Positions 19,999 through 42,084 of a stretch of DNA of 64,000 nt are shown here, in pieces. The stretch covers positions 166,546 to 230,545 of the forward strand of contig CAYMVY010000001.1 of the NCBI GenBank assembly GCA_964394405.1. The letters are read 5' to 3'. The position numbers and the translations under genes are program-made. The notes beneath the pieces are model-generated. The model saw only the letters and a program-made list of their open reading frames with translations, made no database searches and was not told where the DNA came from. How positions within the stretch are numbered: position 1 is the stretch's first letter; each line of letters opens with the position of its first letter. Source of the DNA: an uncultured Gammaproteobacteria bacterium (GTDB lineage: Bacteria > Patescibacteriota > Patescibacteriia > Magasanikbacterales > UBA922).

Positions 19999-20265
19999 AT
20001 GAAAGGATATCTCTACATTCTCCAGAGTAACAAAAACGGTCGATATTATATTGGAAGCACGAATAATCCAGATCGACGTTTAGAAGAACACAACGGAAAA
20101 CTCGTCACAACCACACAATATCTTGTGCCACTTAAAATGGTATTTTGCAAAGAATACCAAGAACTAAGCGAGGCACGAAATATTGAACGAAAATTAAAAA
20201 GACAAAAAAGTAGGATCTTGATAGAAAAGATAATAAAAGATCAAAATATATTCATGGGCCAGTAG
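19999..20265 (+). CDS. GIY-YIG domain protein (UPF0213-like), copy 1
   Basis: GYLYILQS…GRYYIGSTNNPDRRLEEHN = GIY-YIG motif; stop codon overlaps first 10 nt of tRNA-Ala. Confidence 0.7.
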   Translation: MKGYLYILQSNKNGRYYIGSTNNPDRRLEEHNGKLVTTTQYLVPLKMVFCKEYQELSEARNIERKLKRQKSRILIEKIIKDQNIFMGQ

Positions 20266-20331
20266 CTCACCTGGTAGAGCGCCTCGTTTGCACCGAGGAG
20301 GTAGGGGGTTCGAGTCCTCTCTGGTCCACCA
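20256..20331 (+). tRNA. tRNA-Ala(UGC) with encoded CCA
   Basis: Cloverleaf with G3:U70 identity pair, anticodon loop uuUGCac, T-loop GGTTCGAGT, 3' CCA. Confidence 0.85.
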
Positions 20332-20394
20332 GGCTTCATCCTGATTACATCAGGATTTCGCCCGGCAAGCCGTTTACATAACTTTGGAGGGAGT

Positions 20395-20679
20395 ATGTAC
20401 TACGTTTACATTTTATTGTGTAGTGATCGTACTTACTACACCGGGTATACAACTAACCTTAAGCGGAGGTTACAGGAACATGAACTGGGTCAAAATGAAA
20501 GTACGAAATACAAAAGACCGGTTCGACTCGTCTTTTTTTGTTCTTTTTCAAACATGGACAAAGCAATCCAGTTTGAAAAATATTTAAAAACAAATTCAGG
20601 ACGGGCATTTAGAAACAAACATCTGATAAATAATTCGTTATCCGAGCCTGCTCGGCGTAGCGAAGCGAAGCCGAGGTAG
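20395..20679 (+). CDS. GIY-YIG domain protein (UPF0213-like), copy 2
   Basis: MYYVYILLCSDRTYYTGYTTNLKRRLQEHE; C-terminal 10 nt overlap the tRNA-Phe 5' end. Confidence 0.65.
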   Translation: MYYVYILLCSDRTYYTGYTTNLKRRLQEHELGQNESTKYKRPVRLVFFCSFSNMDKAIQFEKYLKTNSGRAFRNKHLINNSLSEPARRSEAKPR

Positions 20680-20741
20680 CTCAGTGGTAGAGCAGAGGCC
20701 TGAAGAGCCTTGTGTCGCCAGTTCGATCCTGGCTCTCGGCA
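20670..20741 (+). tRNA. tRNA-Phe(GAA)
   Basis: gccgagg acceptor, anticodon stem gaggc/gcctt with loop cuGAAga, T-arm gccag-ttcgatc-ctggc; close to bacterial tRNA-Phe consensus. Confidence 0.8.
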
Positions 20742-20759
20742 CGGGTAAAATCGAACAAT

Positions 20760-20836
20760 CGGAGTGTAGCTCAGTTGGCTAGAGCATCTGGTTTGGGACC
20801 AGAGGGTCGAAGGTTCAAGTCCTTTCACTCCGACCA
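20760..20836 (+). tRNA. tRNA-Pro(UGG) with encoded CCA
   Basis: C1:G72 start typical of tRNA-Pro, anticodon loop uuUGGga, 3' CCA. Confidence 0.8.
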
Positions 20837-20845
20837 AAAACACAA

Positions 20846-20876
20846 AACCCTGTACCATTTCGGTGCAGGGTTTTTG
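20846..20876 (+). terminator. terminator (accctgtaccatttcggtgcagggt + T5) ending the plus-strand tRNA set
   Basis: 8-bp stem plus TTTTT. Confidence 0.65.
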
Positions 20877-20965
20877 CGTTGGCCATACAGTAGGGGACTT
20901 TTGTAATCCCATGTGTATGAGTAATATGTTGCCATATCACTCGTGAACTGTCAAACAGTTCACTG

Positions 20966-21039
20966 AGCGGTAAACCAGATTCGAACTGGCGACCTTCTCC
21001 TTGGCAAGGAGACGCTCTAACCAACTGAGCTACTACCGC
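20966..21039 (-). tRNA. tRNA-Gly(GCC)
   Basis: Reverse complement gcggtagtagctcagttggttagagcg-tctcc-ttGCCaa-ggaga…gccag-ttcgaat-ctggt-ttaccgc. Confidence 0.8.
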
Positions 21040-21122
21040 ACGTCTTCGCTACACTACACCATGCACACACCTTTGAGGTGAGCATGCTCGGCATAGTCCT
21101 CCGAAGGAGGGCGAAGTCTGAG

Positions 21123-21196
21123 TTGCGGGGGAGGGATTTGAACCCCCGACCTTCGGGTTATGGGCCCGACGAGCTGCCTGGCTGCTCTACCCCGCG
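21123..21196 (-). tRNA. initiator tRNA-fMet(CAU)
   Basis: Near-identical to E. coli tRNA-fMet: C1·A72 mismatch, three G:C pairs in anticodon stem, loop cCATaa. Confidence 0.85.
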
Positions 21197-21231
21197 ATAT
21201 ACTGAAACTATGTTAGTGGAAACTATTCCCG

Positions 21232-21303
21232 AGCGGGTAGCGGGAGTCGAACCCGCGTCATCAGTTTGGAAAACTGAGATAATAGCCGTTATACGATACC
21301 CGC
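21232..21303 (-). tRNA. tRNA-Gly(UCC)
   Basis: Reverse complement gcgggtatcgtataacggctattatctcagttTTCCaaactgatgacgcgggttcgactcccgctacccgct closely matches E. coli glyT. Confidence 0.85.
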
Positions 21304-24218: not shown

Positions 24219-27200
24219 TTATGTAAACTTATTCTTCAATATCTCCTTAATTCTTCCCCCATACAATTTAACTCCCAAAATAACCGCAAGTCCTGCAAGC
24301 AAAAGCACGACAGCGCGTATGATTTCAATTCGAGAATAACCTTCCCCTTCTTCTACCATTTCTACCATCGCAACTTTCTCCCCTTTTATCACCCCCTCGA
24401 TCCGCACATCTTTCATATCACGCGGAGAAACCATATACCCACTCTTGGTTTCCTGCACGATTCCAGTTACCGAAACACGTGCCCCTTCAGTAAAAAGTGA
24501 TTTATCAATTCCAGATCCTCCACGAATATAGAGTCGCACTTCATCAGTACCATCATCAAGATATACATATGAACCTTTGATGCCCGTCACCTCCCCTGTG
24601 ATCTCGGTTAGCCAGCCCTCATACGGCTCATCAATATCAGCAATAGCAAGCTCAAGCGGAGTGTAGGTCTCGCTCTTTCCCACAATTGATATATCAGTAG
24701 CCGCATCAATTTTCAATCGCGCTTCCCCAGAAGTTTCAGCTAGTTCGCCCGTGATTTTTACCTTATCTCCACGAGCAAGTGTAGGAAAATCTTTTTTATA
24801 TGAATAAATCTGCAATCCCGGAGATCCTGCAATATAAAAATACTGCGAACTCATGACACCAGGCTCTACAACCACCGTTCCAGTTAAAGATACAACCGTT
24901 CCCACATCAAAATTCCGCACGTCAGTAAGTGTCGTCTCTACTTTTGGTTTTGTAGCAATTGTCTTCACCTTCGACTTTACAACCTCGACTGTTGGAACCA
25001 GTGGATTCTTCTCCCCTGGAGTAAGTTCCGCAGTCCAGAACCACATATCACCTCCATACGTATATGACTTCCCTTCTTTTGAAGAAGCATATTCTATTTC
25101 GTACAAAACCAATCCATCAGAATCGATAATCCATACACTCTCTCCAGAATTAGTAAGCGAAAGTTTTGTGTCTTTTGAATAAAACGCTCGATATTCCCCT
25201 TTTTTCAGAATTGTTTCTTCTGGAAATAGATATGGCTTTGAACCACCCTCACCATCATCCAGTGATAATCCTGCCAAATAAATATCTCGATCATGCGGAT
25301 TAAAAAGTTCAATGTATTCATTCTTCGTATCGCTTCCTAGAGGATTAGGTAATATTTCCACAATTACCGGAATAAACTCCGGAGAATAACTATGTTCAAT
25401 AATCCCAAAACCAACTTCTTCTACTGACGACGAAGAAGTTGAAATCGTAGTGGTAGTAGACACGCGGGAAATTATTTTTTCTGTTTTAAAAAAAATATTT
25501 TCACCACCCTTGGTGATCGTCTCAGTAATGATAAAATCTTCTTCATAATTCCCCGAATCTTTGCCTGATATACGCATGAGAGAAGTTCCCTTCGGAGGAG
25601 CTTTAGCAGCCACATCTTCACCATTCCATTCTCCATATACCACTCGATCAATTTCTGTACCGCTCGGATCAGTAAGGGTAAGCAAATCACCAGAATTATT
25701 CAGACTACCTTTGGGTTTTTCTATGACAAAAAATTGTCTCGAAGCAATCGTGCCAGTTAATGTAGTTTTTGCAAGACTTCCGTCCTGAAAAATCCAACCA
25801 TCAAGAGAAATAGACGAACTTGTTATATTTAACAATTCCACAAACTCAGTCTGGTTATCAGAAGGAATTGAGACAAATTCATTAATCAGAATACTCCCTT
25901 CGGCAAATGCTGGCTTAGGTGTTTCAAGAGTTACCACAGATGAATTATTCCCGCCTGTCTGAATTGGTGAAGAAACTACTACTTTTGGAGTAATATTATT
26001 TGGACTTCCGGGTGTCGGAGTAATTGTATAGGCAAAATCTGTGTGATCAATAGTAGTATCTTCCCCATCACTCACCCGAGCGACCGAATGTCCTTTACTG
26101 GGTATTGGAGCCGCACTATTGTCTTCCCCATAAACTACTGCATCAATAATTTCTTGTCCTGCATTTTTTAGTACAATCGAATCGCCCGACTGATTCAGCT
26201 TACTTGAAGATAAATAAACTAACCGGAATCCTGATGTTTCAATCGTTCCAGTAACTGTGGCAATTTTACCCACACCATCATAGAGTGTACATCCATCAAG
26301 CAACACATCTTCTTCTCCTGCATTATACAATTCAATCCACTCTTTCTCTCCGGAATTCGGATCACTCAAAAATTCATTAATAACAATTTTTAGTGTACTA
26401 CTCGGCGCTTCGTCACCACCCCCCTCCTCTTCATCTTCTGGTTCAGGAATTACAGATGGCAGAATTTCAATGGTATGGAAAACCGTACTCGAAGCCTGCT
26501 CTGTATCATACACAGTGAGTATTACCTGTTTAGTCCCCGTAGTTGCAAATGCATATACGACACTCACACCCTCATACATCTCATTTTCAATTATCCATAC
26601 ATACCGCTCAATACCACTCTCGAGATCAGATGAACCAGAAGCATCAAAAAATATTGATTCATCTACCAGTACACTCTGTGGTCCATCAATACGGGCACTC
26701 GGGGCATGATTTACAATCTCTTCCTCAGAATCAGTCCACCAATAATTTTGCGTGCCTGGAGTCGAGGAGACTGGATGTTCTTTCCATTGGAAAATATCAT
26801 CAGACTCGCCTATGTCACTAATCCGCTCAAGTGAATTATTGTTTACACCAGCGTATACAAATTTTTCTACAAAATCATCACTACCACTTCCCTTCTTAAT
26901 CCCAATTTCTTCTCCAGTTTTAGTAAGCGTAGTCCACACACTATCGAATACAGTTGAAGTAGTGTCTGGATGATCTGCAAAAAATACCCTATCGTTTTGT
27001 GCAATAACTGCATAAGTACCTGGAAGAAGAATGGTCGAAGTAATCGTACTGCTCGGACTTATCGTGAGTCCATGATTCGCCCCTCCCTCCCAAAATTTCC
27101 ATCCAGTTAAATCTACAGCCTCAGCGCTTTTATTATAAATCTCAATCCACTGATGATCACTCGAGGCACATCCGCTCGGACATATTTCAGTGATGATAAT

Positions 27201-27296
27201 ATTCTCCGAAACTGTCTTTACATTTTTTGTGAATAAAAAAATACTTAATGCAATCACAAATACAATAAGTACTATTTCCCTCCATTGTTCTTTCAT
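24219..27296 (-). CDS. large cell-surface protein with multiple lamin-tail-domain (LTD) repeats, N- and C-terminal membrane anchors
   Basis: 1025 aa; N-terminal signal/TM; repeated LTD signatures INEFLSDPNSGEKEWIELYN, EFVELLN, EYIELFN; C-terminal TM IIRAVVLLLAGLAVILGV. Confidence 0.65.
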   Translation of the reverse strand: MKEQWREIVLIVFVIALSIFLFTKNVKTVSENIIITEICPSGCASSDHQWIEIYNKSAEAVDLTGWKFWEGGANHGLTISPSSTITSTILLPGTYAVIAQNDRVFFADHPDTTSTVFDSVWTTLTKTGEEIGIKKGSGSDDFVEKFVYAGVNNNSLERISDIGESDDIFQWKEHPVSSTPGTQNYWWTDSEEEIVNHAPSARIDGPQSVLVDESIFFDASGSSDLESGIERYVWIIENEMYEGVSVVYAFATTGTKQVILTVYDTEQASSTVFHTIEILPSVIPEPEDEEEGGGDEAPSSTLKIVINEFLSDPNSGEKEWIELYNAGEEDVLLDGCTLYDGVGKIATVTGTIETSGFRLVYLSSSKLNQSGDSIVLKNAGQEIIDAVVYGEDNSAAPIPSKGHSVARVSDGEDTTIDHTDFAYTITPTPGSPNNITPKVVVSSPIQTGGNNSSVVTLETPKPAFAEGSILINEFVSIPSDNQTEFVELLNITSSSISLDGWIFQDGSLAKTTLTGTIASRQFFVIEKPKGSLNNSGDLLTLTDPSGTEIDRVVYGEWNGEDVAAKAPPKGTSLMRISGKDSGNYEEDFIITETITKGGENIFFKTEKIISRVSTTTTISTSSSSVEEVGFGIIEHSYSPEFIPVIVEILPNPLGSDTKNEYIELFNPHDRDIYLAGLSLDDGEGGSKPYLFPEETILKKGEYRAFYSKDTKLSLTNSGESVWIIDSDGLVLYEIEYASSKEGKSYTYGGDMWFWTAELTPGEKNPLVPTVEVVKSKVKTIATKPKVETTLTDVRNFDVGTVVSLTGTVVVEPGVMSSQYFYIAGSPGLQIYSYKKDFPTLARGDKVKITGELAETSGEARLKIDAATDISIVGKSETYTPLELAIADIDEPYEGWLTEITGEVTGIKGSYVYLDDGTDEVRLYIRGGSGIDKSLFTEGARVSVTGIVQETKSGYMVSPRDMKDVRIEGVIKGEKVAMVEMVEEGEGYSRIEIIRAVVLLLAGLAVILGVKLYGGRIKEILKNKFT

Positions 27297-27528: not shown

Positions 27529-28491
27529 TCATTTATCGGCAGTCGTCGGCAGCTTGATTTTACTAAACCACGGACAACGCACAAGGAAAGATTCCTCATG
27601 CTCAGCCCAGGTACAGTCATCGAACGCCGGGTCCCCTTCGTCAATACGACCATCACAGTCGTTGTCGCCCCCATCCTGGAAGTCGTACCCTTCTCGATGC
27701 GGCCCAACGAGTATGGACTCACCAGTCTGCATGAGAGAGATCCCGTAGGGACAAACAAGGCGGTCCAAGAAGAGAAGCCTCTCCTCATGAAACTCACAGA
27801 GCACAGCCGCGTGCCCCAGCCTAGGGTCATCAGCGCAGTCGCAAGTTGTCTGACCAAGTGCAGGCAGACCATCGCATGCAGGATAGCCATCGCGGTCGCA
27901 GTCGTTGCCAGGCAGAGAATAGCACTCAACAAAGAAGAGGGTAGCCGGGGAATTCAGTGTGGAGTCGTTAGCTTCCTCTTCTTGACCGACGGTACCCAAA
28001 CCGAGAGCTCCATCAACCACCCCATCGCAGTTGTCACCTTTCCAGTCTGTAGCGCCAGGATGGTTGAGATTACTCCCATCCATCTTGAACGCACCGCTAT
28101 CAGACCCAACAGTGGGGCGTTCACCATCGCTCGGATTGTCATCGCAGTCGCCGCCACGAAGTTCGTTGACCTGGAAGACGGGATTCAGTGATCCGACGCA
28201 GGGCGCCGTCTCGCAGAACCCATCTCCATCGTCGTCGTAGTTGTCGGCGGTCATGTCTGCCATGAGCCCGCCGTCAGAGCCAGAAGCGCCGATCGGAACT
28301 CTGCCATGACGATCGACGAAGAGGTGGCACATGCCCGTGCTAGGGATGCAGTAGTGCCCGTTGTCACAGTCCGAGTTCACGGAACAGCTCTTCGCCTCTC
28401 CACCAGACTGACGCTCGATGAGCAGGTAGACGGCGGTCGCGAGGAGGACAGCGGCGAGCGAGAGGAGAGCGATCAGAGAAAACTTCTTCAT
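27529..28491 (-). CDS. secreted Cys/Asp-rich repeat protein (MopE-like putative metal-binding motifs), GC-rich island gene
   Basis: Signal peptide MKKFSLIALLSLAAVLLA; repeated DGDGFCE, DCDRDGYPACDG, DNDCDGRIDEGD motifs; SD aagga 7 nt upstream; local GC about 58%. Confidence 0.55.
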   Translation of the reverse strand: MKKFSLIALLSLAAVLLATAVYLLIERQSGGEAKSCSVNSDCDNGHYCIPSTGMCHLFVDRHGRVPIGASGSDGGLMADMTADNYDDDGDGFCETAPCVGSLNPVFQVNELRGGDCDDNPSDGERPTVGSDSGAFKMDGSNLNHPGATDWKGDNCDGVVDGALGLGTVGQEEEANDSTLNSPATLFFVECYSLPGNDCDRDGYPACDGLPALGQTTCDCADDPRLGHAAVLCEFHEERLLFLDRLVCPYGISLMQTGESILVGPHREGYDFQDGGDNDCDGRIDEGDPAFDDCTWAEHEESFLVRCPWFSKIKLPTTADK

Positions 28492-28734
28492 CTCATTTTC
28501 CTTTTCTGTGTGTGTTTACCCCACTTCAAGCCGGGGTGCATAGCATTTCACATACCAAATTTGATATGCACAATGCTACGCACCCGCATATAAACCATGT
28601 CGAATTGTAATGAACTATTTTATTTTCTTTTTCGGATTTCGTCCTAATTTTCAGGACTCATCAGTGCCGATTTAATCGACAGATCCTTTGGAGCCAGCTC
28701 GACCTAGTGTCGAGTCTGGCTCCGGTTGAGAACG

Positions 28735-29577
28735 TTACTGCTGCGGAGGCAGGGCAAACCACCAGGTGATCTGATAGGTGTTGCCCGACTCAACGTCTGT
28801 CACGTTGATGCTGACGGACATTTGGATCTCGGCAGCCTGAGCTTCAGTAATATCGGGGAGATACACCCCAGCCAAAATTTCCATTTCGGCGCTCGGCGGA
28901 ACGGTATACCCGCCCATCTCGCAGGTTGCGAAGACTGTGTGCTCGAACGTCGTCTCATCGCACGAGCGTGGAAAGAAAGCGGCACGTCCCACATCTCCGA
29001 GATACAGCGAGACCTGATCATCGTCTGCATCACCCTGAGTGGGAATATTGTGACCCTGCACGATGACGTGATTGATCACGACTCCGTATCCGCAATTGTC
29101 TTCGATCGCGACCCTCATCTCAACCCACATATTCGCAATACCCGGAGCGGTGTTGATCATCAGATCACTGGTCCATGTCGTTTCAATGAGCGAGCTGATG
29201 TACGCGCCACGCTGAGGGTAGTCGGTGTACGGCTCGCACAAGTCTTCCTCAGCCTGCCGATCGCCGAGCGGCAAGCTGGTGCCGTCCGGACACACGAGGT
29301 TCGCTGTACCGTCACCATTGTCGACGAGAGTACAACTCTCTCCATCCTCACCATCCTGCCCCGGGATTCCCTGCGGACCCTGGGGCCCCATGGCACCGTC
29401 GGTACCATCTTCCCCATCGATCCCGCTCTTGCCCGGGTCTCCTCGGTCCCCCTTGTCACCCTTCTCACCCGCCGGACCCTGGGGGCCCGGTTCTCCCTCG
29501 ACGACGTACGTATCGCACGCGAAGAGGAAGAGGTTGAAGAACGAGACGAGAACGACGAGAAAACGAATCGTGGCCAT
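28735..29577 (-). CDS. secreted collagen-like (Gly-X-Y) repeat protein, GC-rich island gene
   Basis: Signal peptide then GEPGPQGPAGEKGDKGDRGDPGKSGIDGEDGTDGAMGPQGPQGIPGQDGEDG; SD ggaggtg upstream. Confidence 0.55.
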   Translation of the reverse strand: MATIRFLVVLVSFFNLFLFACDTYVVEGEPGPQGPAGEKGDKGDRGDPGKSGIDGEDGTDGAMGPQGPQGIPGQDGEDGESCTLVDNGDGTANLVCPDGTSLPLGDRQAEEDLCEPYTDYPQRGAYISSLIETTWTSDLMINTAPGIANMWVEMRVAIEDNCGYGVVINHVIVQGHNIPTQGDADDDQVSLYLGDVGRAAFFPRSCDETTFEHTVFATCEMGGYTVPPSAEMEILAGVYLPDITEAQAAEIQMSVSINVTDVESGNTYQITWWFALPPQQ

Positions 29578-29928
29578 GATACACCTCCATAGGCGTAGTT
29601 GATCCCTTCAGCCGGCCAGGCCAAAAGGATAGTTGTGTATGGTACTAGTCAACGTGACTACCCATTGGTGTGCCAAGCATTTAGCAGACCAATATGTAGT
29701 CACGTTAGTAAAAATCAATTGGAAAGGACTATTATTTTAACGAGCTAGTATAACATATATGCGCAAATTTGTCAAGGTAATTGGGTAATATTTTGGCTAA
29801 TTTTAGCAAAATTTGCTTAACTCAGTATACTATTTTTCTTCTGCTCAATGTTATATACCCCAGTCTTCATGTTTTCCCCAACCTATCCCCCACCAAAAGC
29901 CCTAATTTGTATACAATATTCTACACAT

Positions 29929-29969
29929 TGTGGATAATTATGTGGAAAAGTACGCACATATGTGGATAA
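29929..29969. promoter_or_regulatory. DnaA-box cluster distant from dnaA: tgtggataa (x2, perfect reverse complement of TTATCCACA) plus tgtggaaaa
   Basis: Boxes at 29929-29937, 29941-29949, 29961-29969, all same orientation; flanked by palindromic ttttggctaaNtttagcaaaat copies at about 29786 and 30022. Confidence 0.45.
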
Positions 29970-30066
29970 ACTATGCTTGTATACACTATTATATACAAAC
30001 AAAAAAAGAAAAAACAAGATAATTTTGGCTAAAATTAGCAAAATAAAAACAGTTTTGGTCAAATCC

Positions 30067-30095
30067 TTGACGATATGTTCAAAAAATGCTATACT
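30067..30095 (+). promoter_or_regulatory. strong sigma-70 promoter TTGACG-17-TGcTATACT
   Basis: Near-consensus -35, 17-nt spacer, extended -10 TG, read directly. Confidence 0.5.
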
Positions 30096-30101
30096 GTATT
30101 T

Positions 30102-30428
30102 GTTGATCTTTGACATATTGAGATTCTCCCCCTAGTGGGAATTGGAATCTCCTACACCGATTGCACTACTCACCGTCCGGCCAAGGCCGGATAAACACCA
30201 ACATCAAAAACAAACACGGTCTGAATGTGGCACCTCGCCCTTTCAACACCCTTTGAGTGGTCAATCAGGTACTATTTTCCAGGGAATATCTGGCGTTTCC
30301 CAAGCGATCTCAGTCGTTATCAACGAAGACGATTGAGACAGCTTGGGGAAAACCGAACCCTAGAAAACTACCGGCTTTCCAGCCATAAAATATTATTTCA
30401 TGGGTCTCGGACAGCCGGTTTTTATATT
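30102..30428 (+). ncRNA. candidate structured non-coding RNA (about 330 nt) downstream of the promoter, unknown family
   Basis: No convincing ORF (only 64 and 84 aa overlapping frames). Stable hairpins: gagattc…gaatctc, tccggcc-aa-ggccgga, 10-bp stem tctcagtcgt…acgattgaga. GC higher than flanks. Ends at a weak hairpin + T5 near 30419. Confidence 0.3.
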
Positions 30429-30534
30429 TACAATAAAAAATTTGCTTTCTTTATTCTTTTTGGTATAATTTGTGCATAATTGATTTTTCTTGAAATACTC
30501 CTCGCAAGCCCCCTCTCTCATAAGCACCCATCCT

Positions 30535-30933
30535 ATGATCAAAGTACATCCTGATTCTGGACTTACCGAACAATTCATACTAGAAATGAAAGATCTTTTG
30601 ATACAAGAGAGGGAAAAACTCGAAGAAGATTTGAGCACCTTTACCGTCAAAGATGAACACGTACCGAATAATACCAACACGGTTTTCCCTGACTACGGTA
30701 CTGAGCCAGAAGATAATGCGCACGAAGTTGAGGATTTTATCACCAACAAATCTCTTGAAGAAGTTTTAGAAAAACAACTCCGCGATATCGAATCAGCGCT
30801 CAAACGGATTGAAAATGGTACTTACGGTATCTGCAAATTTACTGGGAAAGCGATCGGGGAAAAACGTCTCCGCGCACGGCCTACATCTAGCACAACCGTG
30901 GAAGCAAAAAAATTCCTCACCGATGAAGCATAA
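30535..30933 (+). CDS. DksA/TraR-family protein lacking the C4 zinc-finger cysteines
   Basis: Coiled-coil then ENGTYGICKFTGKAIGEKRLRARP (DksA C-terminus with only one Cys). Confidence 0.45.
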   Translation: MIKVHPDSGLTEQFILEMKDLLIQEREKLEEDLSTFTVKDEHVPNNTNTVFPDYGTEPEDNAHEVEDFITNKSLEEVLEKQLRDIESALKRIENGTYGICKFTGKAIGEKRLRARPTSSTTVEAKKFLTDEA

Positions 30934-31387
30934 TCTCTATACAGTATTTCAAAATATCTCTAGACGCCATTGGCTCAGTATATTCAGTGGCGTTTTTTGT
31001 ATTACGATCGATCAGATAGCAAAATTTGGCGCACGAGCTTTTCCCGAATACACGCTCTATATAATTCCAAACCTAGTGGGGTGGGAATATTTTGAAAACC
31101 CTGGTATCGCATTTGGAATCCCCCTACCACAATTCATTGTAATTCCACTAAGTATAGTAATCATACTTGCCGGAATCATATTTCTCAAAAAAGAAAACAT
31201 ACATAAAACACAAATACTTGGGTGCTCTCTGCTTATCGCAGGAGCTATCTCGAACCTATATGATCGCATGATGTACGGGATAACAATTGACTATATCCGA
31301 ATATTTACCTCAATTTTCAATCTAGCTGATAGTGCGATTGTACTCGGAGGAATTTTACTTCTCAAAAAAAATAAAATTAAAGATTAA
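30923..31387 (+). CDS. lspA: lipoprotein signal peptidase (signal peptidase II)
   Basis: 4 TM; conserved LYDRMMYGITIDYI and FNLADSAIVLG blocks with catalytic Asp residues; start overlaps previous gene by 11 nt. Confidence 0.75.
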   Translation: MKHNLYTVFQNISRRHWLSIFSGVFCITIDQIAKFGARAFPEYTLYIIPNLVGWEYFENPGIAFGIPLPQFIVIPLSIVIILAGIIFLKKENIHKTQILGCSLLIAGAISNLYDRMMYGITIDYIRIFTSIFNLADSAIVLGGILLLKKNKIKD

Positions 31388-31482: not shown

Positions 31483-33003
31483 ATGTTTACTTCGGTTCCA
31501 TCAGCCGCTGTACTCGGTCTTGACTGTACATCAATTAGTGTTGAAGTAGATATCTCTGGCACCTGGCCAGGATTTACCATCGTAGGACTCCCCGATGCTG
31601 CGATACAAGAAGCACGCGAGCGTATTCGAACTGCATGGAAAAATAGCAACATCTCTTTCCCAAACAATAGTCGAATCATCGTCAATCTCGCTCCAGCAGA
31701 CGTACGAAAAGAGGGTTCATCATATGATCTCCCAATTGCTCTTGGCATGTACCTGTCTGTAGAAAAAATTGAACTTGATATCTCAAAAATGCTTTTTGTC
31801 GGAGAATTGGCGCTCGATGGTACACTCCGGCATACAACAGGAATTCTACCCCTTGCAATATTTGCAAAAGAAAAAGGAATACGTGCATTATTTATTCCCG
31901 AGGTAGATGCTCCTGAGGCTTCGATAATTGAAGGAATTACCATCTACCCAGTACGATCATTTCAAGCATTACTTGATCATCTGCGTGGAATAAAACCAAT
32001 ACCCCCACAACCAACCTTAGATATTTCCACCTGGACTGAGCAGTACATGAGCGATATGGATATGTCTCTAGTCAAAGGTCAAGAATTTGTAAAACGTGGG
32101 TTAGAAATAGCGGCAAGTGGTGCACACAATATTCTCTTAAGTGGTCCTCCCGGTTCAGGAAAAACACTCCTCGCACGCACGCTCCCCTCAATTCTTCCAA
32201 AAATGACAGTGGATGAAATGATTGAAGTCACCAAAATCTACTCGGTTGCCGGATTACTCCCAAGTAATCGACCTATTGTTACGACACGTCCTTTTAGATC
32301 ACCACATCATAGTGCGTCTGGTGTTGCCCTCGTAGGTGGAGGAAAATTTCCAAAACCAGGTGAAATCTCTCTCGCGCACCGAGGAGTTCTATTCTTAGAT
32401 GAATTCCCTGAATTTCCTCGATTAGTACTAGAAAATTTGCGCCAACCTCTGGAGGATGGTGTCATTAGTATCTCTCGAGCACAGGGTACCGTTGCATTCC
32501 CAGCGCGCTTTTCACTGGTCGCGAGCCAGAATCCCTGTCCATGTGGGTATGCAACTGACCCAGGAAGATCATGTTCTTGCTCGCCTATCCAAGTGGAACG
32601 ATACAAGAAAAAAATTAGTGGTCCACTGATTGATCGTATTGACTTGCATGTTGAAGTGCCAAAAGTACAATTCGAAAAACTTTCAAATAATGAAATTGGA
32701 GAAACTTCCGACTCTATCAGAGCACGCGTTGAAGAAGCCCGTGCACGACAAACTCGCCGTTTTAAAAATGTACCAATAGAAACAAATGCTGAGATGAAAA
32801 ATAGAGAATTAAAAGAATTTTGTATATTAAATGAAACCTCAATTGAGTTGATGCGTCAGGCAGTGACTCATATGAATTTGTCAGCAAGAAGTTATTATCG
32901 AATTATCAAAGTCGCACGCACGATTGCAGATCTCGGTGCACATGATGACATTCAAACTGAACATGTTGCGGAAGCACTACAATACCGAACCAAAGCCGAA
33001 TAA
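31483..33003 (+). CDS. YifB/ComM-family Mg-chelatase-like AAA+ ATPase
   Basis: Lon-like N-domain, Walker A GPPGSGKT, sensor motifs, C-terminal Mg-chelatase subunit ChlI domain. Confidence 0.85.
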   Translation: MFTSVPSAAVLGLDCTSISVEVDISGTWPGFTIVGLPDAAIQEARERIRTAWKNSNISFPNNSRIIVNLAPADVRKEGSSYDLPIALGMYLSVEKIELDISKMLFVGELALDGTLRHTTGILPLAIFAKEKGIRALFIPEVDAPEASIIEGITIYPVRSFQALLDHLRGIKPIPPQPTLDISTWTEQYMSDMDMSLVKGQEFVKRGLEIAASGAHNILLSGPPGSGKTLLARTLPSILPKMTVDEMIEVTKIYSVAGLLPSNRPIVTTRPFRSPHHSASGVALVGGGKFPKPGEISLAHRGVLFLDEFPEFPRLVLENLRQPLEDGVISISRAQGTVAFPARFSLVASQNPCPCGYATDPGRSCSCSPIQVERYKKKISGPLIDRIDLHVEVPKVQFEKLSNNEIGETSDSIRARVEEARARQTRRFKNVPIETNAEMKNRELKEFCILNETSIELMRQAVTHMNLSARSYYRIIKVARTIADLGAHDDIQTEHVAEALQYRTKAE

Positions 33004-33104: not shown

Positions 33105-34487
33105 TTATTTTCGCACGTATGACAATGGATTCTGGTATTTATTGTTAACTCGGATCTCAAAATGTACGTGAGGTCCTGTAGTTCGCCCCGTCAACCCAAT
33201 AAGTGCTATGGTTTGACCCTGAGTTACGGTATCTCCTACCTCTACGTACATCTGCCCAGCATGCGCATACCACGATACCACACCACCTCCGTGATCTACT
33301 TTGATATAACATCCATACCCACCATTATACCCACACTGCGAGGTGATGACGGTACCTGCTTTTATTGCGTAAATTGGTGTGCCGAGCGGACCGGCGATAT
33401 CAAGACCTGTGTGGCGAAGACCGAAATACTGGGTAATGGTTTTTGCTCCAGTTGGCCAAATGTACCCACCTCCAGCAGGAACATCGACTGAAGGTGGAGG
33501 TGCGGTCACCCCATCAATCACATCAGGTTTACCAATAATAGCAGGGGTCTGAGTGATCACTGGCTTTGGACGTGGTTTTACTCCACCTGGTACAATAAGC
33601 TTCTCACCCACAGTTAATACTGCACCAGTCTCTCCCAGATCATTAAATTCAGAAATATTTTCAGTATTTGCAGCATAAGTACGGGCAATTTTTGAAAGCG
33701 TATCCCCTTTTACAACTGTATGCACCACACCGTCAACAGGAAGAATGATTAATTTCTGACCAGGTCGAATATATGAGCGTGCAGTCATGTTGTTTGCAGA
33801 CAAAATTGTTTCCATAGTAAGTCCAAATTGCGCAGCAATTGAGCCAAGCACATCACCGGACTGGACTTCGTAAGTTATAATGTCAGTACGGGCGTCACTA
33901 GGTCCTGACTGTTGAGGATCCACCAGACCAAAATCTACTCCAGGCATAATAATTGGTTTGGTAAGAGCAGTTCCGCCTGCCACAATACTCGTGAATTCAA
34001 TTGGATTAGTGCGCAAAGACTGTGTATCACCACTATAGAGGGCTACCTGTCTCCATGAATCAGCAGGAGTGATGGTCGACACATCCATTGTATTCAGAAT
34101 CTCGTCAGACTCATACGCCTGATCACCTGGTCCAACTAGTGCATACAGCATGGTATGACGGCCCGCAATCTCATCATAGGCTCGTGTATATAGCCTACTG
34201 TGAGGAAGCATAATACATAACGCTACAATAAAAAGTACTATTTGTAATACACCCCTTCTCCCAAAGACATCAAGCGGTCCTTGCTGTTTGGTGAGTGAAA
34301 ATTTTTGAAATCTTTTTTTTATTCGATCAATCCCACGATAGATATAAAAGCCGAGTGTCCGTGAGTAGAGATAATTGATAGAGAGGATAACATTCCATAA
34401 AAAATGTAATATCCAAAAAACAAACCTTTTGATATATATGGCCACCCGAAGCAATGCTAACCCAATTGTATACCAGTTGATTTTCAT
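33105..34487 (-). CDS. M23 family metallopeptidase with two LysM domains
   Basis: LysM (YTVKSGDTLSKIA; YEVQSGDVLGSIA) and M23 active site HxxxD…GTTGPHVHFEI. Confidence 0.75.
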   Translation of the reverse strand: MKINWYTIGLALLRVAIYIKRFVFWILHFLWNVILSINYLYSRTLGFYIYRGIDRIKKRFQKFSLTKQQGPLDVFGRRGVLQIVLFIVALCIMLPHSRLYTRAYDEIAGRHTMLYALVGPGDQAYESDEILNTMDVSTITPADSWRQVALYSGDTQSLRTNPIEFTSIVAGGTALTKPIIMPGVDFGLVDPQQSGPSDARTDIITYEVQSGDVLGSIAAQFGLTMETILSANNMTARSYIRPGQKLIILPVDGVVHTVVKGDTLSKIARTYAANTENISEFNDLGETGAVLTVGEKLIVPGGVKPRPKPVITQTPAIIGKPDVIDGVTAPPPSVDVPAGGGYIWPTGAKTITQYFGLRHTGLDIAGPLGTPIYAIKAGTVITSQCGYNGGYGCYIKVDHGGGVVSWYAHAGQMYVEVGDTVTQGQTIALIGLTGRTTGPHVHFEIRVNNKYQNPLSYVRK

Positions 34488-35455: not shown

Positions 35456-38407
35456 TTGTCAAGGGTAACGGGCCAAAAAACCCGTATTTTAGCCAAATTT
35501 TGTCTGTCTATGCCTATTCCAAGTCTCAAGACCCGCTCATACGGATATCTGACGGGTAGAGGTGGTGCCGCCCCAAACACACGGGACACTGGGAGACCCC
35601 CCCGACCGAGAAATCCCAAACATAAGAGATTCTTTAGTAAAAAAAACATTTTTCTTGCTCTTTTTACATTTGCGGTGATGGGATTCTTGGGAGGTACTAT
35701 TCTAATTGCATGGGCAAGCAAAGATTTACCTGATCCAAACCGACTTACCGACCGAGAAGTAGCAGAAAGCACCAAAATATACGATCGTACAGGCACCCAC
35801 CTACTCTATGAAATTTTTGCTGATGAAAAACGCACACTGGTTAGATTAGAAGATATCCCAAAGGATCTGGTTAATGGACTCATAGCAACTGAAGATAAAA
35901 CCTTCTACGAACACAAAGGAATCAGACCACTCAGTATTCTGAAAGCCCAAATTCAGGGTATTTTCAGTACAGAAAGAACCCGTGGTGCCTCGACAATCAC
36001 CCAACAGCTAGTTAAAAACGCGATCCTCACCGATGAACGTTCGTATGTACGAAAAATTAAAGAAGCTATCCTCTCAATAAGACTTGAACAAAAATATACC
36101 AAAGACCAGATTCTCCAAATTTACTTTAATGAAATCCCGTATGGTTCAACAAATTATGGGGTACAGTCTGCTGCACAAAGCTATTTTGGCAAAGATGTAA
36201 AAGACCTGACACTCGCTGAGTCTGCTGCGCTTGCAGGTATGCCCCAATCCCCATCAAGATTTCTAAACAACATCGAAGCTTTTACAGAACGTCGAAATTT
36301 GGTTTTACATGAAATGTATAAAGAGGGTCATATCACTGAAGAACAAAAAAATGAGGCGCAAGCAGAGGAGCTTGTCATAAAACCAATAGCCTATAATATC
36401 AAAGCGCCCCACTTTGTACTGTATGTAAAACAACTCCTCGTTGATAAATACGGCGAGGCGCTCACCGAACGTGGGGGATTAAGCGTCATCACAACACTTG
36501 ATTGGGATAAGCAACAAATCGCAGAAGAAGTGATCGGTGGAGCTGCTGGCCAAAAAACACTCGCAGATGCAGATGCAGATAATGCAGCGCTCGTGGCTTT
36601 AGATCCAAAAACTGGACAAGTGCTCGCAATGGTTGGATCACGCGACTTTTACAATGAAGAAATCAGTGGTCAATTCAATGTTGCAACCCAGGGCAAACGT
36701 CAGCCAGGATCTTCATTTAAACCTATTATTTATGCTGCTGCATTTGAGCGCGGATATACACCTGATACCATTCTATACGATGTACTCACCAATTTCAGCA
36801 CCACCGAAGGAAAGCCGTACATCCCAACAAATTATACACTCAAAGAATACGGACCACTCACCATGCGCCAAGCACTCGCTGGCTCACTGAATATTCCCGC
36901 AGTCAAAACAATGTATTTACTCGACCCAAAGCGAGGAATTGATTTTGCCAAGCGACTTGGCTACACCACCCTGGATAATCGAGAAAATTGCGGTCTCGCT
37001 CTTGTTCTTGGGTGCGGAGAAGTAACCGTACTAGAACACACAAATGCATATGCGACATTTGCAAATAAGGGTATCCGCTATGAACCCGTGAGTATACTTA
37101 AAGTGGAGGACAGTACTGGAAAAATACTTGAAGAGTGGAAACGAGAAAAAGGAATCGAGGCAATAAAGCCAGAACTCGCCGCAACCATTACCAATGTCCT
37201 CAGTGATGATGGAGCTCGATCTTTTATATTCGGAAGTGGTGGAGTACTCACGCTCCCAGGACGACCTGTTGCTGCAAAAACTGGAACGACCAATAATTAT
37301 ATTGATGCCTGGACAGTCGGCTATACACCTAGCTTAGCAACGGGAGTCTGGACAGGGAACACTTCAAACACTCCGATGAAGTCTGGTTCAAGTGGAAGCA
37401 TGCTTGCAGCAAAACTTTGGAATCTATTTATGCGTGATGCGGTAAAAGGCATGCCCGTGGAGCAATTCCCACCTGCACCACCAAACACCGCTGAGAAGGC
37501 TGTTTTACGCGGCTCAAGCGGTGGTGGAGTAACACTCAAAGTTAACAAAATAACCGGTAAACTGGTATCAAGTTCAACACCTCCAGATCTTATTGAAGAG
37601 CGAACGTACATGCAACCACACGAAATTCTTCAGTACGTGGACAAAAATAATCCGCGAGGACCAATTCCTGAACATCCTGAGAATGATCCTCAATATTACG
37701 CATGGGAAAAAGGAATCCAAGAGTGGATTATACGGAAACAAGAATCAGACCCTACGTGGGTTCCAAATTTTGGAGAGCCTCCTACAGAGTATGATGATGC
37801 GTATTCAATTGAATTAATTCCAACACTAGATGTTTCCTATCCACAGCAAAACTCAACACTTACCTCTCGTTTTATCACCACAAACATCTCTGTGTCTGCT
37901 CCAAGAGGAGTAAGTGAGGTACTATACAAAATTGATGGAACATTAATCGAAACCAAGCGTTCACAACCATTCAACCTCTCGTATAATGCTGAAACATTAG
38001 ATTCAGGAGAGCACACACTTACCATCATAGTAATGGATGATATTGGAAACCGCATAGAAAAAAACATTCCTTTCTCACTCGATGTTCCCCCTCTCCCTCC
38101 AGGAGTACGTTTCAAAGAACGATCGTACACAACACCAAAAAATAATTTCCCTCTGGGAATCCTACTCTCATACCGGAGATTAGAGGAACTAGCAAAAGTA
38201 TCGATTTTCTTTCAACCATCAATGGGTGGTGAAAAAAAACTCATAGCTTCAATCACTGATTTCGACAATGCAACATACTTTAATAACCTACTCTCGATTA
38301 TCTGGTATGATGCGCCAAGTACAGGAAATTATCTCCTGAGCGCCGAAGTAGAATTACGGTCTGGATCTATTAATACACTCGACCAAATCACAATTGAAGT
38401 GAAATAG
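35456..38407 (+). CDS. class A penicillin-binding protein (PBP1A: GT51 transglycosylase + transpeptidase) with about 230-aa C-terminal extension
   Basis: GT51 motifs EDKTFYEHKGI, RGASTITQQL; TPase SSFKP, SLN, KTGT. Confidence 0.85.
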   Translation: MSRVTGQKTRILAKFCLSMPIPSLKTRSYGYLTGRGGAAPNTRDTGRPPRPRNPKHKRFFSKKNIFLALFTFAVMGFLGGTILIAWASKDLPDPNRLTDREVAESTKIYDRTGTHLLYEIFADEKRTLVRLEDIPKDLVNGLIATEDKTFYEHKGIRPLSILKAQIQGIFSTERTRGASTITQQLVKNAILTDERSYVRKIKEAILSIRLEQKYTKDQILQIYFNEIPYGSTNYGVQSAAQSYFGKDVKDLTLAESAALAGMPQSPSRFLNNIEAFTERRNLVLHEMYKEGHITEEQKNEAQAEELVIKPIAYNIKAPHFVLYVKQLLVDKYGEALTERGGLSVITTLDWDKQQIAEEVIGGAAGQKTLADADADNAALVALDPKTGQVLAMVGSRDFYNEEISGQFNVATQGKRQPGSSFKPIIYAAAFERGYTPDTILYDVLTNFSTTEGKPYIPTNYTLKEYGPLTMRQALAGSLNIPAVKTMYLLDPKRGIDFAKRLGYTTLDNRENCGLALVLGCGEVTVLEHTNAYATFANKGIRYEPVSILKVEDSTGKILEEWKREKGIEAIKPELAATITNVLSDDGARSFIFGSGGVLTLPGRPVAAKTGTTNNYIDAWTVGYTPSLATGVWTGNTSNTPMKSGSSGSMLAAKLWNLFMRDAVKGMPVEQFPPAPPNTAEKAVLRGSSGGGVTLKVNKITGKLVSSSTPPDLIEERTYMQPHEILQYVDKNNPRGPIPEHPENDPQYYAWEKGIQEWIIRKQESDPTWVPNFGEPPTEYDDAYSIELIPTLDVSYPQQNSTLTSRFITTNISVSAPRGVSEVLYKIDGTLIETKRSQPFNLSYNAETLDSGEHTLTIIVMDDIGNRIEKNIPFSLDVPPLPPGVRFKERSYTTPKNNFPLGILLSYRRLEELAKVSIFFQPSMGGEKKLIASITDFDNATYFNNLLSIIWYDAPSTGNYLLSAEVELRSGSINTLDQITIEVK

Positions 38408-38409: not shown

Positions 38410-38440
38410 AAAAATCCCTCCGAGCTGGAGGGATTTTTTT
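38410..38440. terminator. bidirectional terminator (atccctccgagctggagggat + T7)
   Basis: 8-bp stem; between PBP1A and dnaN ends. Confidence 0.75.
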
Positions 38441-39566
38441 ACTGTCTGATCGGCATCACAATATACTTGAAAGTTTCATCTCCATCTACCGTAAACAAAC
38501 ACGGAGAGTCAGGAGAATTGATATGCATCTGTGCTTCCTCTTTTTCGATCTGCTGTAGACCATCCAATACATACCGGTGATTGAGTAGTACGGTCATTTT
38601 TTCCCCGACCACCTCGCCCTCCACGTATGACGAATGTTCACCCGTTTGTGCACTTACCGAGGTTACACCGATTTGTTTTTTCTCAGGATCTAATTCAAAA
38701 GAAATCGAATTAACTCCAGCAATAGTAAATAAACTCGCTGCTTTTATTTTATTACTAATCTCTGAAACAGAAAAAGTCGCTGTGTTTTTGAAAGTAGTGG
38801 GTATAATCTGTGTATAATCTGGATAGCGTCCTTCAATAAGTCGACTAACCATTTCAAATTTATCATACCGAATTGCAATTTGATTTTGACTCACGGTCAC
38901 TCGTACGTTTTCCTCCCCCTCATGTTGTCGTCCGAGTTGTATGAGACGTGCCATTTCATAAGCCACTCTCCCAGGCACAATACAGGTTACCTCAGCATCT
39001 TCGCCTTGTGCGATAGGAACCCGCGCTTCAGAAAGTCGGTACGAGTCAGTTGCTGCCATTAGCAAACCTTCGTAACGCTCGCTTTTGAATCTACAAAAAA
39101 TACCAGAAAACTCAGGACGTATTTCATTTTTTGCACAGGAAATTACCACTTTCCCAATCTGATCTTTGAATGTTTGAGCGTGTATCAAGTAGGTGTGTCC
39201 TTCCTCAATCGCAGGAATTACTGGGTACTCTTCTGCAGGGAATCCTTTTATTTTTGTCTGAGATCCGGAAGAGTGGATAACGAGCTCGTTTGACTCAAGT
39301 GTGAGCTCCACCTGATCATTCGTGAGAAGTCGCACGTATTCAGTCAGCGTACGAGCAGGGACAGTAAAAGTTCCTGGTTCATCCACCTTTGCTCGTATGT
39401 GTGTTTTGACTGAGACTTCAAGATTGGTAGCACTTATCTCTACTCCAGACTCATGTGCACGTATAAGCACATTCTGTAGTATAGGGAGATTTACATGTTT
39501 ACTTGCAAATGCATTTACAATCTCTAGACTATATAATAAATTTTCACGTGTGGATGTTAGTTTCAT
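38439..39566 (-). CDS. dnaN: DNA polymerase III beta sliding clamp
   Basis: 375 aa, three-domain clamp; N-terminus MKLTSTRENLLYSLEIV typical. Confidence 0.9.
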   Translation of the reverse strand: MKLTSTRENLLYSLEIVNAFASKHVNLPILQNVLIRAHESGVEISATNLEVSVKTHIRAKVDEPGTFTVPARTLTEYVRLLTNDQVELTLESNELVIHSSGSQTKIKGFPAEEYPVIPAIEEGHTYLIHAQTFKDQIGKVVISCAKNEIRPEFSGIFCRFKSERYEGLLMAATDSYRLSEARVPIAQGEDAEVTCIVPGRVAYEMARLIQLGRQHEGEENVRVTVSQNQIAIRYDKFEMVSRLIEGRYPDYTQIIPTTFKNTATFSVSEISNKIKAASLFTIAGVNSISFELDPEKKQIGVTSVSAQTGEHSSYVEGEVVGEKMTVLLNHRYVLDGLQQIEKEEAQMHINSPDSPCLFTVDGDETFKYIVMPIRQ

Positions 39567-39813
39567 ATGTATTTCTCTTTTTATATTATAATCTAGTAGA
39601 TAATAATAGAGGCTGTGAATGGAGGGGATAAATCGTTTTTATTGCTAACTGTAGATATTTTTTTGATTTTATTGTGTGCACAAGTCAGGGATACTTTTTG
39701 AACAGAGGGTGAATAGGTTTTGGTATGTGTGTGGGGTGTGTGCAAAACTTTTAGTTAGTACCAGTTTATTAACCCACTTAAATACAGGTATTGGGCTAAG
39801 TTATGCACAGAAA

Positions 39814-41202: not shown

Positions 41203-41282
41203 AGTTTGTGTTTATGAGGGGAATTGTAACACAGTTTATAAATCCAAAAAATGCTCTAAATTAAGCGAAAAGTGTATATTAT

Positions 41283-41310
41283 GTGGATTACCTGTGGATG
41301 GTGTGGATAA
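41283..41310. promoter_or_regulatory. three tandem DnaA boxes upstream of dnaA (tgtggatta, tgtggatgg, tgtggataa)
   Basis: Perfect and 1-2-mismatch reverse-complement TTATCCACA boxes read directly; candidate oriC / dnaA autoregulation site. Confidence 0.55.
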
Positions 41311-41455
41311 TACATAGAAAACAAGCATACGCGAAAACAAAATAGTTGACAATACATACTTTTTCATGTTTACTATCACCCGTCTCTTGCGAACACTGCA
41401 CGCGCAGTTATGTAGGCGACGCAACCACCGTCAACAGCTTCAGGAGGAATTCCGC

Positions 41456-42074: not shown

Positions 42075-42084
42075 TTTTTTCATC

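Follow-up and report, generated by a model that had tools for sequence, protein, structure and literature searches.

Clusters of DnaA boxes outside the replication origin, oriC, are already known, as is the part that DnaA plays as a transcription factor. In Bacillus subtilis, oriC-proximal DnaA-box clusters (DBCs) repress initiation, and some of them regulate neighbouring genes (Okumura et al., 2012; PMC3245932). The datA locus of Escherichia coli carries essential boxes that share one direction and a conserved geometry, with IHF as accessory protein (PMC5742627). At the gidAB-parAB promoter within oriCII of Pseudomonas aeruginosa DnaA is reported to act as a transcription factor (PMC13438810). 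Here we describe a gap at 29578-30534 of a 64,000-nucleotide stretch of DNA (the window; positions 166,546 to 230,545 of contig CAYMVY010000001.1, assembly GCA_964394405.1) from an uncultured member of the Patescibacteria, or Candidate Phyla Radiation (CPR). The gap, of 0.9 kb, separates a collagen-repeat gene from a dksA-like gene, with gene orientation diverging there, and it holds three DnaA boxes, bracketing palindromes, divergent promoters and the gene of a structured non-coding RNA. Chance does not account for this arrangement, which more than 50 CPR contigs share as one conserved unit. With a probability of about 0.6, the region is in our view an origin-proximal, DnaA-bound control region for a stand-alone structured RNA, in which DnaA and a palindrome-binding factor would set the output of the divergent promoters. 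As far as the databases and the literature show, the rigid array with its palindromic partner sites, the wide conservation in the CPR and the coupling to an RNA absent from Rfam are new.

Like the DBCs of B. subtilis, the array is a cluster of consensus boxes outside yet near oriC, and it is intergenic and lies between promoters. It differs from them in having three boxes and one degenerate box at rigid spacing, two bracketing 22-bp palindromes and a coupled RNA gene, and for this array a role in initiation control would be a conjecture by analogy. With datA and with DARS1/2 of E. coli it has in common a small number of same-direction boxes, sites for a second protein, closeness to the origin, and neighbouring transcription that could modulate it. 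However, there is no sequence relationship, and the second sites are 22-bp palindromes, not IHF or Fis sites, which flank the boxes instead of lying between them. The P. aeruginosa case is alike in placing DnaA boxes upstream of an origin-region promoter (PMC13438810), but here the regulated product would be a non-coding RNA, whose promoter lies about 100-170 bp downstream of the boxes.

The conserved order of elements begins on the left with a leftward sigma-70 promoter, a 23-mer palindrome, a 22-bp palindrome and the three DnaA boxes. It continues with a second 22-bp palindrome, a second 23-mer, the rightward promoter and the RNA with its intrinsic terminator, and after the RNA come a separate dksA promoter and then the dksA-like gene, lspA and comM. 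The triple array (29929-29969, minus strand), found by a box scan, consists of perfect boxes at 29929-29937 and 29961-29969 and a one-mismatch box at 29941-29949, which read TGTGGATAA, TGTGGATAA and TGTGGAAAA respectively on the plus strand. All three point in the same direction, reading TTATCCACA on the minus strand, and their starts are offset by 0/12/32, so that box 1 is followed by 3 nt, box 2, 11 nt and box 3 within a span of 41 bp. At least three boxes within 60 bp were reached by none of 200 shuffles. When the box variants of relatives are allowed, the window has two box clusters only, this array and another at 41282-41310 upstream of dnaA. A degenerate inverted fourth box occurs at 29883-29891 (plus strand), with a TATCC core conserved among close relatives; it reads CTATCCCCC in the window and (T/A/C)TATCCAC(C/T) in L204-L208. 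Its function in the window is doubtful, because it has three mismatches to the consensus. A DnaA-box-like TGTGCATAA at the dksA promoter of the window (30471-30479) has no counterpart in close relatives, and was therefore left out of the box count.

Conservation of the region was followed at several distances. In a first comparison, nhmmer with the gap as query was run against comM loci from 80 genomes, and four loci (L005, L011, L015, L017) have boxes, palindromes, promoter and transcript start about 1.5 kb upstream of comM. A metagenome scan baited with the palindrome widened the set to at least 120 contigs, and about 45 of the palindrome-baited contigs listed share the module order through to the dksA-like gene, lspA and comM. 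In the baited contigs the second palindrome is of the 22-bp or the TTGGCTAA type, the promoter reads TTGACA-17-TGnTATAnT and the RNA is about 300-450 nt long. Closer relatives were reached through DksA homologues 69-88% identical, which gave eight contigs (L201-L208); these share the neighbourhood of the window from the LTD protein through dnaN-dnaA, as far as each locus extends. Alignment A3, made of the gap of the window and seven close relatives, shows conservation of the leftward promoter, of the two 23-mers and the two 22-bp palindromes, and of the three boxes, which are invariant. On the right side the rightward promoter is conserved together with the initial 15 transcribed bases, as are the RNA and the dksA -10.

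The geometry of the array is kept over much greater distances. The palindrome and three boxes at offsets of exactly 0/12/32 were found in 48 of 50 distinct RNA-bearing loci, with at least 22 of 27 box positions matched in those 48, and the box consensus across loci is TGTGGATAA / TGTG(G/C/T)A(T/A/C)AA / TGTGGATAA. Box 1 is 145-282 nt from the RNA start across loci. The dksA-like gene is the constant neighbour 3' of the RNA, followed by lspA and comM, in every locus that is long enough. L015, L174 and L089 have one more perfect box, immediately next to the -35 of the RNA promoter. The locus with the highest ComM identity in the genome-contig scan (L001, 72%) has no dksA/lspA, boxes or RNA upstream of comM, and the module is therefore not universal.

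The module is origin-proximal wherever this can be seen. In the window the array is 9.6 kb from the dnaA-dnaN spacer, and the first-pass annotation, which had put it eleven kb from dnaA, agrees with distances of 9.8 kb to the 3' end of dnaA and 11.2 kb to its start. Wherever dnaA shares the contig (L121, L164, L201-L204), the module lies 1.5-10 kb from it. The distance to dnaA-dnaN is 6.5 kb in L121 and about 9 kb in L201-L204, and 1.5 kb separate dnaA from the module in L164, where the module comes straight after rpmH-rnpA-yidD. The last of these has an alternative layout (2050-4420), with divergent dnaA, a box cluster, rpmH-rnpA-yidD, the palindrome/box module, the RNA and dksA; here the spacer of the dksA promoter contains a perfect DnaA box, and a further one adjoins the -35 of the RNA promoter.

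The two copies of the 22-bp palindrome (consensus TTTGTATACA..TATACAAA) directly flank the boxes. Palindrome 1 (29906-29927, TTTGTATACAATATTCTACACA) abuts box 1 and is invariant in A3, and palindrome 2 (29978-29999, TGTATACACTATTATATACAAA) is conserved there. The window has six matches to this palindrome, against 0.04 expected; a third copy, with one mismatch, is at 45725-45748, inside an open reading frame (ORF) for a TrmB-family helix-turn-helix protein (45352-46119, minus strand). Outside the 22-bp pair lie 23-mer A (29790-29812, ATTTTGGCTAATTTTAGCAAAAT), 15 bp upstream of the -35 of the leftward promoter, and 23-mer B (30022-30044, ATTTTGGCTAAAATTAGCAAAAT), 22 bp upstream of the -35 of the RNA promoter. 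The two are 91% identical; 23-mer A is kept in 7/8 close relatives in A3, and the half-sites TTGGCTAA/TTAGCCAA recur in distant loci. Palindrome 2, 23-mer B and the DNA upstream of the RNA promoter occupy a tract of 22% G+C (29990-30066).

Three promoters are predicted around the array and the RNA. The leftward one, of the sigma-70 type (29775-29747, minus strand; TTGACA-17-TGtTATACT), matches 11/12 positions with an extended -10, and both hexamers are conserved in the eight sequences of A3. The RNA promoter (30067-30095, plus strand; TTGACG-17-TGcTATACT) is near-consensus; it and the initial 15 transcribed bases hardly vary in A3, and the promoter is present in distant loci too. The promoter of dksA-lspA-comM (30441-30469, plus strand) reads TTTGCT-17-(TGg)TATAAT, and its -10 with the TG is conserved in A3 (TGnTATAnT). 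A large inverted repeat at 29651-29706 (minus strand; 26-nt arms, 85% complementary) folds as minus-strand RNA with -34 kcal/mol (z = -5.2). It could be a 5' untranslated hairpin or an operator of a leftward transcript for the collagen-like gene (28735-29577). Of seven close relatives only L203, L207 and, in part, L205 keep the repeat, which lies within the predicted leftward 5' untranslated region. We treat it as a peripheral element, outside the core module, that only part of the clade has.

Much of this had been seen in the first-pass annotation. The two perfect boxes and one near-perfect box of the same orientation are present as it gave them, as is the TTGACG-17-TGnTATACT promoter; its palindromic repeat copies, put at about 29786 and 30022, are the two 23-mers, and the inverted repeat that it placed at 29640-29705 was recovered with slightly different ends. 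The 22-bp palindromes, the divergent minus-strand promoter, the degenerate fourth box and the separate dksA promoter go beyond it.

The 22-bp palindrome appears to act like an operator, and not like a mobile repeat, because it is near-constant across genomes whose ComM is only 55-70% identical to that of the window, and because it is found at promoters, in some cases right behind a -10. A set of at least 11 contigs (L095, L105, L106, L111, L113, L116, L122, L128, L132, L157, L184) has the palindrome, as TTTGTATACAnTAnTCTAnACAAA, directly before the start codon of a gene for an HTH_17 protein, a position that suggests autoregulation. This protein is conserved, 100-130 residues long and excisionase/MerR-like, with the motif IRVSISEAARLFGVNAQTIRRAI, and as the best candidate it is probably an autoregulated binder of the palindrome. 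In ten further loci (L083, L098, L123, L127, L158, L161, L173, L181, L187, L190) the palindrome closely follows the -10 of a promoter on the opposite strand (CTTGACAAAAAA..N..TGTGCTAT), and these placements suggest a wider palindrome regulon. A copy reading CUUUGUAUACAGUAGUUUAUACAAAG is inserted within a variable hairpin of the RNA in L164 (2535-2565), and L089 has the identical sequence.

Large structured non-coding RNAs of bacteria whose function is unknown include raiA, OLE and ROOL. The RNA of this module resembles them in its length of several hundred nucleotides, its many helices, the alternation of conserved single strands with variable insertions, and its conserved neighbourhood. It differs in having no match in Rfam 15, in being found so far only in a subset of Patescibacteria, and in being joined to a DnaA-box array. 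The genes downstream also have a parallel, as in Bacillus a gene for a DksA-like RNA-polymerase-binding protein, ylyA, lies upstream of the signal peptidase II gene lspA, and the neighbour upstream of these is ileS with its T-box leader. The dksA-like/lspA adjacency downstream of the RNA is the same, but here the upstream neighbour is a new RNA without T-box features, as judged with Rfam.

In the window the RNA occupies 30101-30423 (plus strand, about 323 nt), its 5' end being placed from the -10. This stretch has 46.7% G+C, against 33.5% and 31.5% in its flanks, and its plus-strand fold has z = -7.4 relative to shuffled controls. The best-supported helices are the long hairpin H7 (30292-30354; 91.6% paired, 11 compensatory pairs) and the terminator, followed by H2 (30120-30151; 4 compensatory pairs), the long-range P3 (30157-30172 with 30254-30269; 3 compensatory pairs) and H4 (30175-30192; 3 compensatory pairs). 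A conserved CA-rich single-stranded linker (30193-30216) and helix H5 (30218-30250) lie between H4 and the 3' strand of P3, and H1 (30101-30115) is not supported as drawn. The intrinsic terminator (30370-30423) is a long hairpin with an A/U-rich loop and a T-run at 30419-30423; its helix is 85% paired with 7 compensatory pairs, the inner loop helix is not supported as drawn in the window-type alignment, and the hairpin-plus-T-run end is present in all homologues.

Ten sequences of the window type (alignment A4) were used to count base pairs on the projected minimum-free-energy structure of the window. The share of paired cells, 75.7% against 36-50% when partners are slid by 1-3 columns, is biased upward because the structure comes from one of the aligned sequences, and counts of double changes are fairer. 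By that measure 36 pairs changed on both sides, against 25.1 +/- 3.0 in shuffles, none of 500 shuffles reaching 36, and the covariation score is 0.240 against 0.153.

Profile searches found the RNA in 57 sources, always in the same genomic slot and in three structural subtypes. Aligning all 39 RNAs of the family with MAFFT gave too poor a result for RNAalifold, and the analysis was therefore made by subtype. For the main type, RNAalifold on 23 central domains gave 22 pairs, 13 of them with compensatory changes. The helices are a long-range ACUGC/GCGGU with A-U variants, GAUUC/GAAUC, and the two-part GGUAA..CCUC / GAGG..UUACC, in which CCUC/GAGG is swapped for CUCC/GGAG, CCCC/GGGG and CCCU/AGGG. 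A covariance model of this central domain, R1 (P3 ACUGC/GCGGU enclosing P5/P6 and P7), recovers all held-out main-type members and also L015 (E = 1e-7), L124 (3e-4) and L081 (0.02), with P3 and the GGU..CCUC/GAGG..ACC helix correctly aligned in those matches; it has no match in 15 searched comM loci without an nhmmer match to the RNA. In the central domain of the window the P4-P6 branch is one hairpin and the P7 equivalent lacks the inner helix. The window RNA is joined by nhmmer to L081 and L124 (E = 1.9e-8 and 2.5e-4) and by A4, and it has the identical genomic position, yet it has no R1 match; for these reasons we regard it as a reduced variant of the same positional family, not a member by the main-type model.

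No known RNA family accounts for these sequences. Among the Rfam 15 covariance models the best match for the window has 18.7 bits against a gathering score of 98, and in 15 homologues nothing was found inside the RNA even at E <= 10. At gathering and permissive thresholds the window and 20 homologous loci gave tRNAs and noise only, and ARAGORN found no tmRNA or tRNA in the region. The Rfam 15 models for RNase P, tmRNA, signal recognition particle RNA, 6S, T-box, riboswitches, OLE, ROOL and raiA gave no match. By eye, the consensus also lacks RNase P P4 motifs, a tRNA-like end and the single rod with central bubble of the 6S type. The RNA does not appear to be translated, as the window ORFs of 64 and 84 codons have frameshifts and 1-6 stop codons in seven close relatives, substitutions show no codon periodicity (143/144/127 and 147/154/142 over codon positions), and Pfam has no match to the ORFs of 30101-30423 at E <= 1. 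The RNA of 30101-30423 is structured and non-coding, with a promoter of its own, a terminator, compensatory changes and no coding signal. The first-pass annotation had proposed an unknown small RNA in a GC-elevated, stable-hairpin stretch without ORF, and had pointed to an Rfam/Infernal scan, covariation across relatives and homology to a protein gene in 30142-30480 as checks; the scan gave no match, compensatory changes were found across relatives, and no protein gene was.

The origin lies elsewhere, most likely in the dnaA-dnaN spacer, maybe together with the boxes upstream of dnaA, as both the skew change point near 40 kb and a conserved box-trio element there indicate. Cumulative GC skew drops to about 39 kb and climbs after about 47 kb, with its minimum at 38-47 kb. 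Plus-strand GC skew at third codon positions (GC3 skew) is -0.11 to -0.24 in all six genes between 30.8 and 39.5 kb, irrespective of their orientation, like that of the genes left of the module, and it is non-negative from dnaA onward. The change point of GC3 skew is best placed at 40 kb, where the residual sum of squares is 1001; placing it at 30 kb gives 1645. Skew across the module was compared in 13 loci, the window and 12 related ones, each flank measuring at least 2.5 kb. A negative-to-positive reversal at the module was seen in none of the 13, and the sign was equal on both sides except in L005, where downstream GC3 skew is near zero.

The basal unwinding system consists of a DnaA box beside DnaA-trios, 3'-[G/A]AT-5' (PMC8287927). 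A scan for such sites (a box with at most two mismatches and at least three trios within 16 bp, on the correct side; PMC8287927) gave a single non-coding match, at 39601-39631 in the dnaA-dnaN spacer, where 0.41 per window is expected by chance. It reads TAA TAA TAG - AGGC - TGTGAATGG - A - GGGGATAA, with TAG TAG and an A+T-rich tract ahead, and this block and three further box-like sites of the spacer are conserved in L201-L204. The spacer spans 39567-39813, and its core, at 39594-39631, has the form TAG TAG (A) TAA TAA TAG, GC spacer, TGTGAATGG, AGGGGATAA. The same scan found no trios beside the 29.9-kb boxes, where the palindrome fills that position. The array accordingly lies 9.6 kb inside the left replichore, and the switch in skew, for which the first-pass annotation had suggested looking, is at the dnaA-dnaN spacer (about 39.6-40 kb). 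The second box cluster of the window (41282-41310) reads TGTGGATTA, CTGTGGATG and TGTGGATAA with a pitch of 10 bp and lies between dnaA and rpmH, 80-110 bp ahead of the start of dnaA; it is probably a dnaA autoregulatory site or the left part of the origin. Two parS-like 16-mers (45358-45373 and 45905-45920), each with two mismatches to TGTTTCACGTGAAACA, lie 4-5 kb right of dnaA and are not significant, as 12 of 100 shuffles give at least two. Our literature search found nothing relevant on CPR origins or CPR structured RNAs.

Under the reading that we prefer, a short head-to-tail DnaA oligomer would form on the three boxes, whose shared direction and spacing of 12 and 20 bp suit such an oligomer; the essential datA boxes have this property too (PMC5742627). 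A palindrome-binding protein, for which the small HTH_17 protein is the best candidate, would join DnaA, and the complex would set the activity of the flanking promoters, above all that of the RNA. The 23-mers upstream of the two -35s may help looping or the formation of a higher-order complex. The level of the RNA would then track DnaA status and hence the replication cycle. The strong promoter, the CA-rich linker and the fixed DksA-like neighbour suggest that the RNA would go on to act in trans, probably as a protein-binding RNA.

Several points weigh against this reading. The metagenome loci were baited by the palindrome, so that the association is inflated in that subset; the array is nevertheless not a selection artefact, because all 11 loci reached via ComM or DksA with the upstream region included carry it. 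The -35 of the RNA promoter begins 98 bp downstream of the boxes, and the leftward -35 is 154 bp away from them. Such distances are long for plain activation or repression and would call for looping or a higher-order complex. Three boxes are few, and DnaA binding to them is predicted from their letters. The HTH_17 gene is absent from the 64-kb window, and its link to the palindrome is one of position only. On the side of the RNA, R1 misses the central domain of the window at E <= 10 and the L015-type sequence profile fails to reach the window type at E <= 1, so that it is by position, promoter and P3 motif, and through the bridging members L081 and L124, that the window RNA belongs to the wider family. 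The transcription start, abundance and termination efficiency of the RNA are likewise all predicted.

A different emphasis would make the array mainly an element of the DnaA cycle like datA or the DBCs, serving DnaA titration, DnaA-ATP hydrolysis or exchange, with the RNA as a neighbour or by-product, the palindrome binder in the accessory role of IHF, and flanking transcription switching the complex on and off. This is a real if minority possibility, and one compatible with the preferred explanation. Like the essential set at datA (PMC5742627), the boxes all point one way and have a fixed spacing, nested palindromes bracket them, and their distance from the dnaA-dnaN spacer in the window and from dnaA in the relatives given above is small. 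Origin-proximal clusters repress initiation in B. subtilis (PMC3245932), and a high-affinity box cluster off the unwinding site yet near the origin is also what we find here. However, three or four boxes offer only a small titration capacity, an accessory protein and the defining biochemical activities would be conjecture by analogy, and the RNA gene, which adjoins the boxes in every case, equals them in conservation, as would not be expected of a by-product. The earlier proposal of a DnaA regulatory or titration site is in either case supported by the exact spacing in 48 of the 50 loci. More speculatively, array, palindrome-binding partner and RNA could together form one CPR-specific device for the control of replication initiation, in which the RNA or its transcription would feed back on DnaA or RNA polymerase, perhaps with the DksA-like protein; we regard this as a long shot, and know of no precedent for an RNA component in the bacterial DnaA cycle.

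The remaining explanations fare worse. The RNA is always directly upstream of dksA and ends in an intrinsic terminator, and in several main-type members an upstream UCUCGCC can pair with the terminator 5' half GGCGAGA, as would be expected of a cis-acting leader (riboswitch or attenuator) governing read-through into dksA-lspA-comM. Such a leader is unlikely, given that the spacer between terminator and dksA has a promoter of at least 10/12 positions in 27 of 34 distinct loci (shuffled mean 7.7), with the TGnTATAnT element also in the close relatives of the window. The UCUCGCC pairing is lost without compensation in L011, L096, L138 and L179, the apparent 8-of-9 antiterminator pairing of the window itself has no counterpart in L202, and Rfam riboswitch models give no match. 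As dksA has its own promoter and the alternative pairing is not conserved, an attenuator or riboswitch leader is not supported; a separate RNA gene followed by an independently transcribed operon is the simplest reading, and some read-through may occur. The first-pass annotation had also considered a true oriC or DNA unwinding element, and the region could be imagined as an origin or half of a bipartite one, its 22% G+C tract unwound by negative supercoiling from the divergent promoters. High-affinity boxes beside a very A+T-rich tract, the divergence of gene orientation at the module, the nearness of dnaA, and the L164 module just past rpmH-rnpA-yidD all speak for it, but the skew, which stays negative through 39.5 kb without a flip at the module, and the trios, which adjoin the spacer box and not these boxes, make it very improbable. 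Lastly, 30142-30480 might encode a small protein, as the two window ORFs exist and gene calling in L208 gave an opposite-strand ORF of 83 codons, or the block might be the control region of an integrated plasmid or phage, as had been proposed earlier. Both are largely refuted and retain hardly any probability: the ORFs are broken in the seven close relatives, with even codon-position substitutions and no Pfam match, and chromosomal synteny extends to both sides in eight close and about 50 distant relatives. The neighbours are housekeeping and surface-protein genes, and replication, partition, integrase or mobilisation genes do not adjoin the block.

The genes around the module were assigned with Pfam, and the relatives of its ComM put the organism within the Patescibacteria, near Magasanikbacteria. 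To the left, on the minus strand, are genes for an LTD/PKD surface protein (24219-27296), a Cys-rich protein (27529-28491) and the collagen-repeat protein (28735-29577). To the right are the dksA/traR-like zinc-finger gene (30535-30933, plus strand; PF01258), lspA (within ORF 30809-31387, plus strand; PF01252), comM (31483-33003, plus strand; PF01078), an M23/LysM peptidase gene (33105-34487, minus strand), a class A penicillin-binding protein gene (35456-38407, plus strand), dnaN (38439-39566, minus strand), dnaA (39814-41202, minus strand) and rpmH, rnpA and yidD (41898-42829, plus strand). Short G+C-rich genes (53-61% G+C) are dispersed in this genome of 41.6% G+C, at 27529-29577, 41366-41746, 44149-44871, 46298-46765 and 53454-53909. 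The Cys-rich and collagen-repeat genes beside the gap are among them, with 57-58% G+C and atypical GC3 skew, and they may have been acquired recently, since close relatives carry other genes at the same position. Seven tRNA genes on both strands (20256-21303) coincide with a local plateau of the cumulative skew.

Much of bacterial diversity belongs to the CPR, whose members are ultra-small and for the most part uncultured, and the control of their replication and gene expression is experimentally little known. This locus offers a dnaA-dnaN spacer that is probably oriC and has a DnaA-trio element, a rigidly conserved DnaA-box array outside the origin, and a widespread 22-bp operator with a candidate cognate helix-turn-helix protein. 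It also offers a multi-helix RNA family of about 300-450 nt outside Rfam that is always tied to the array and to a DksA-like factor. If expression of the RNA does follow DnaA, this would be a direct link from the replication initiator to a structured non-coding RNA, and failing that, the annotation of CPR genomes would still gain an RNA family and a palindrome regulon.

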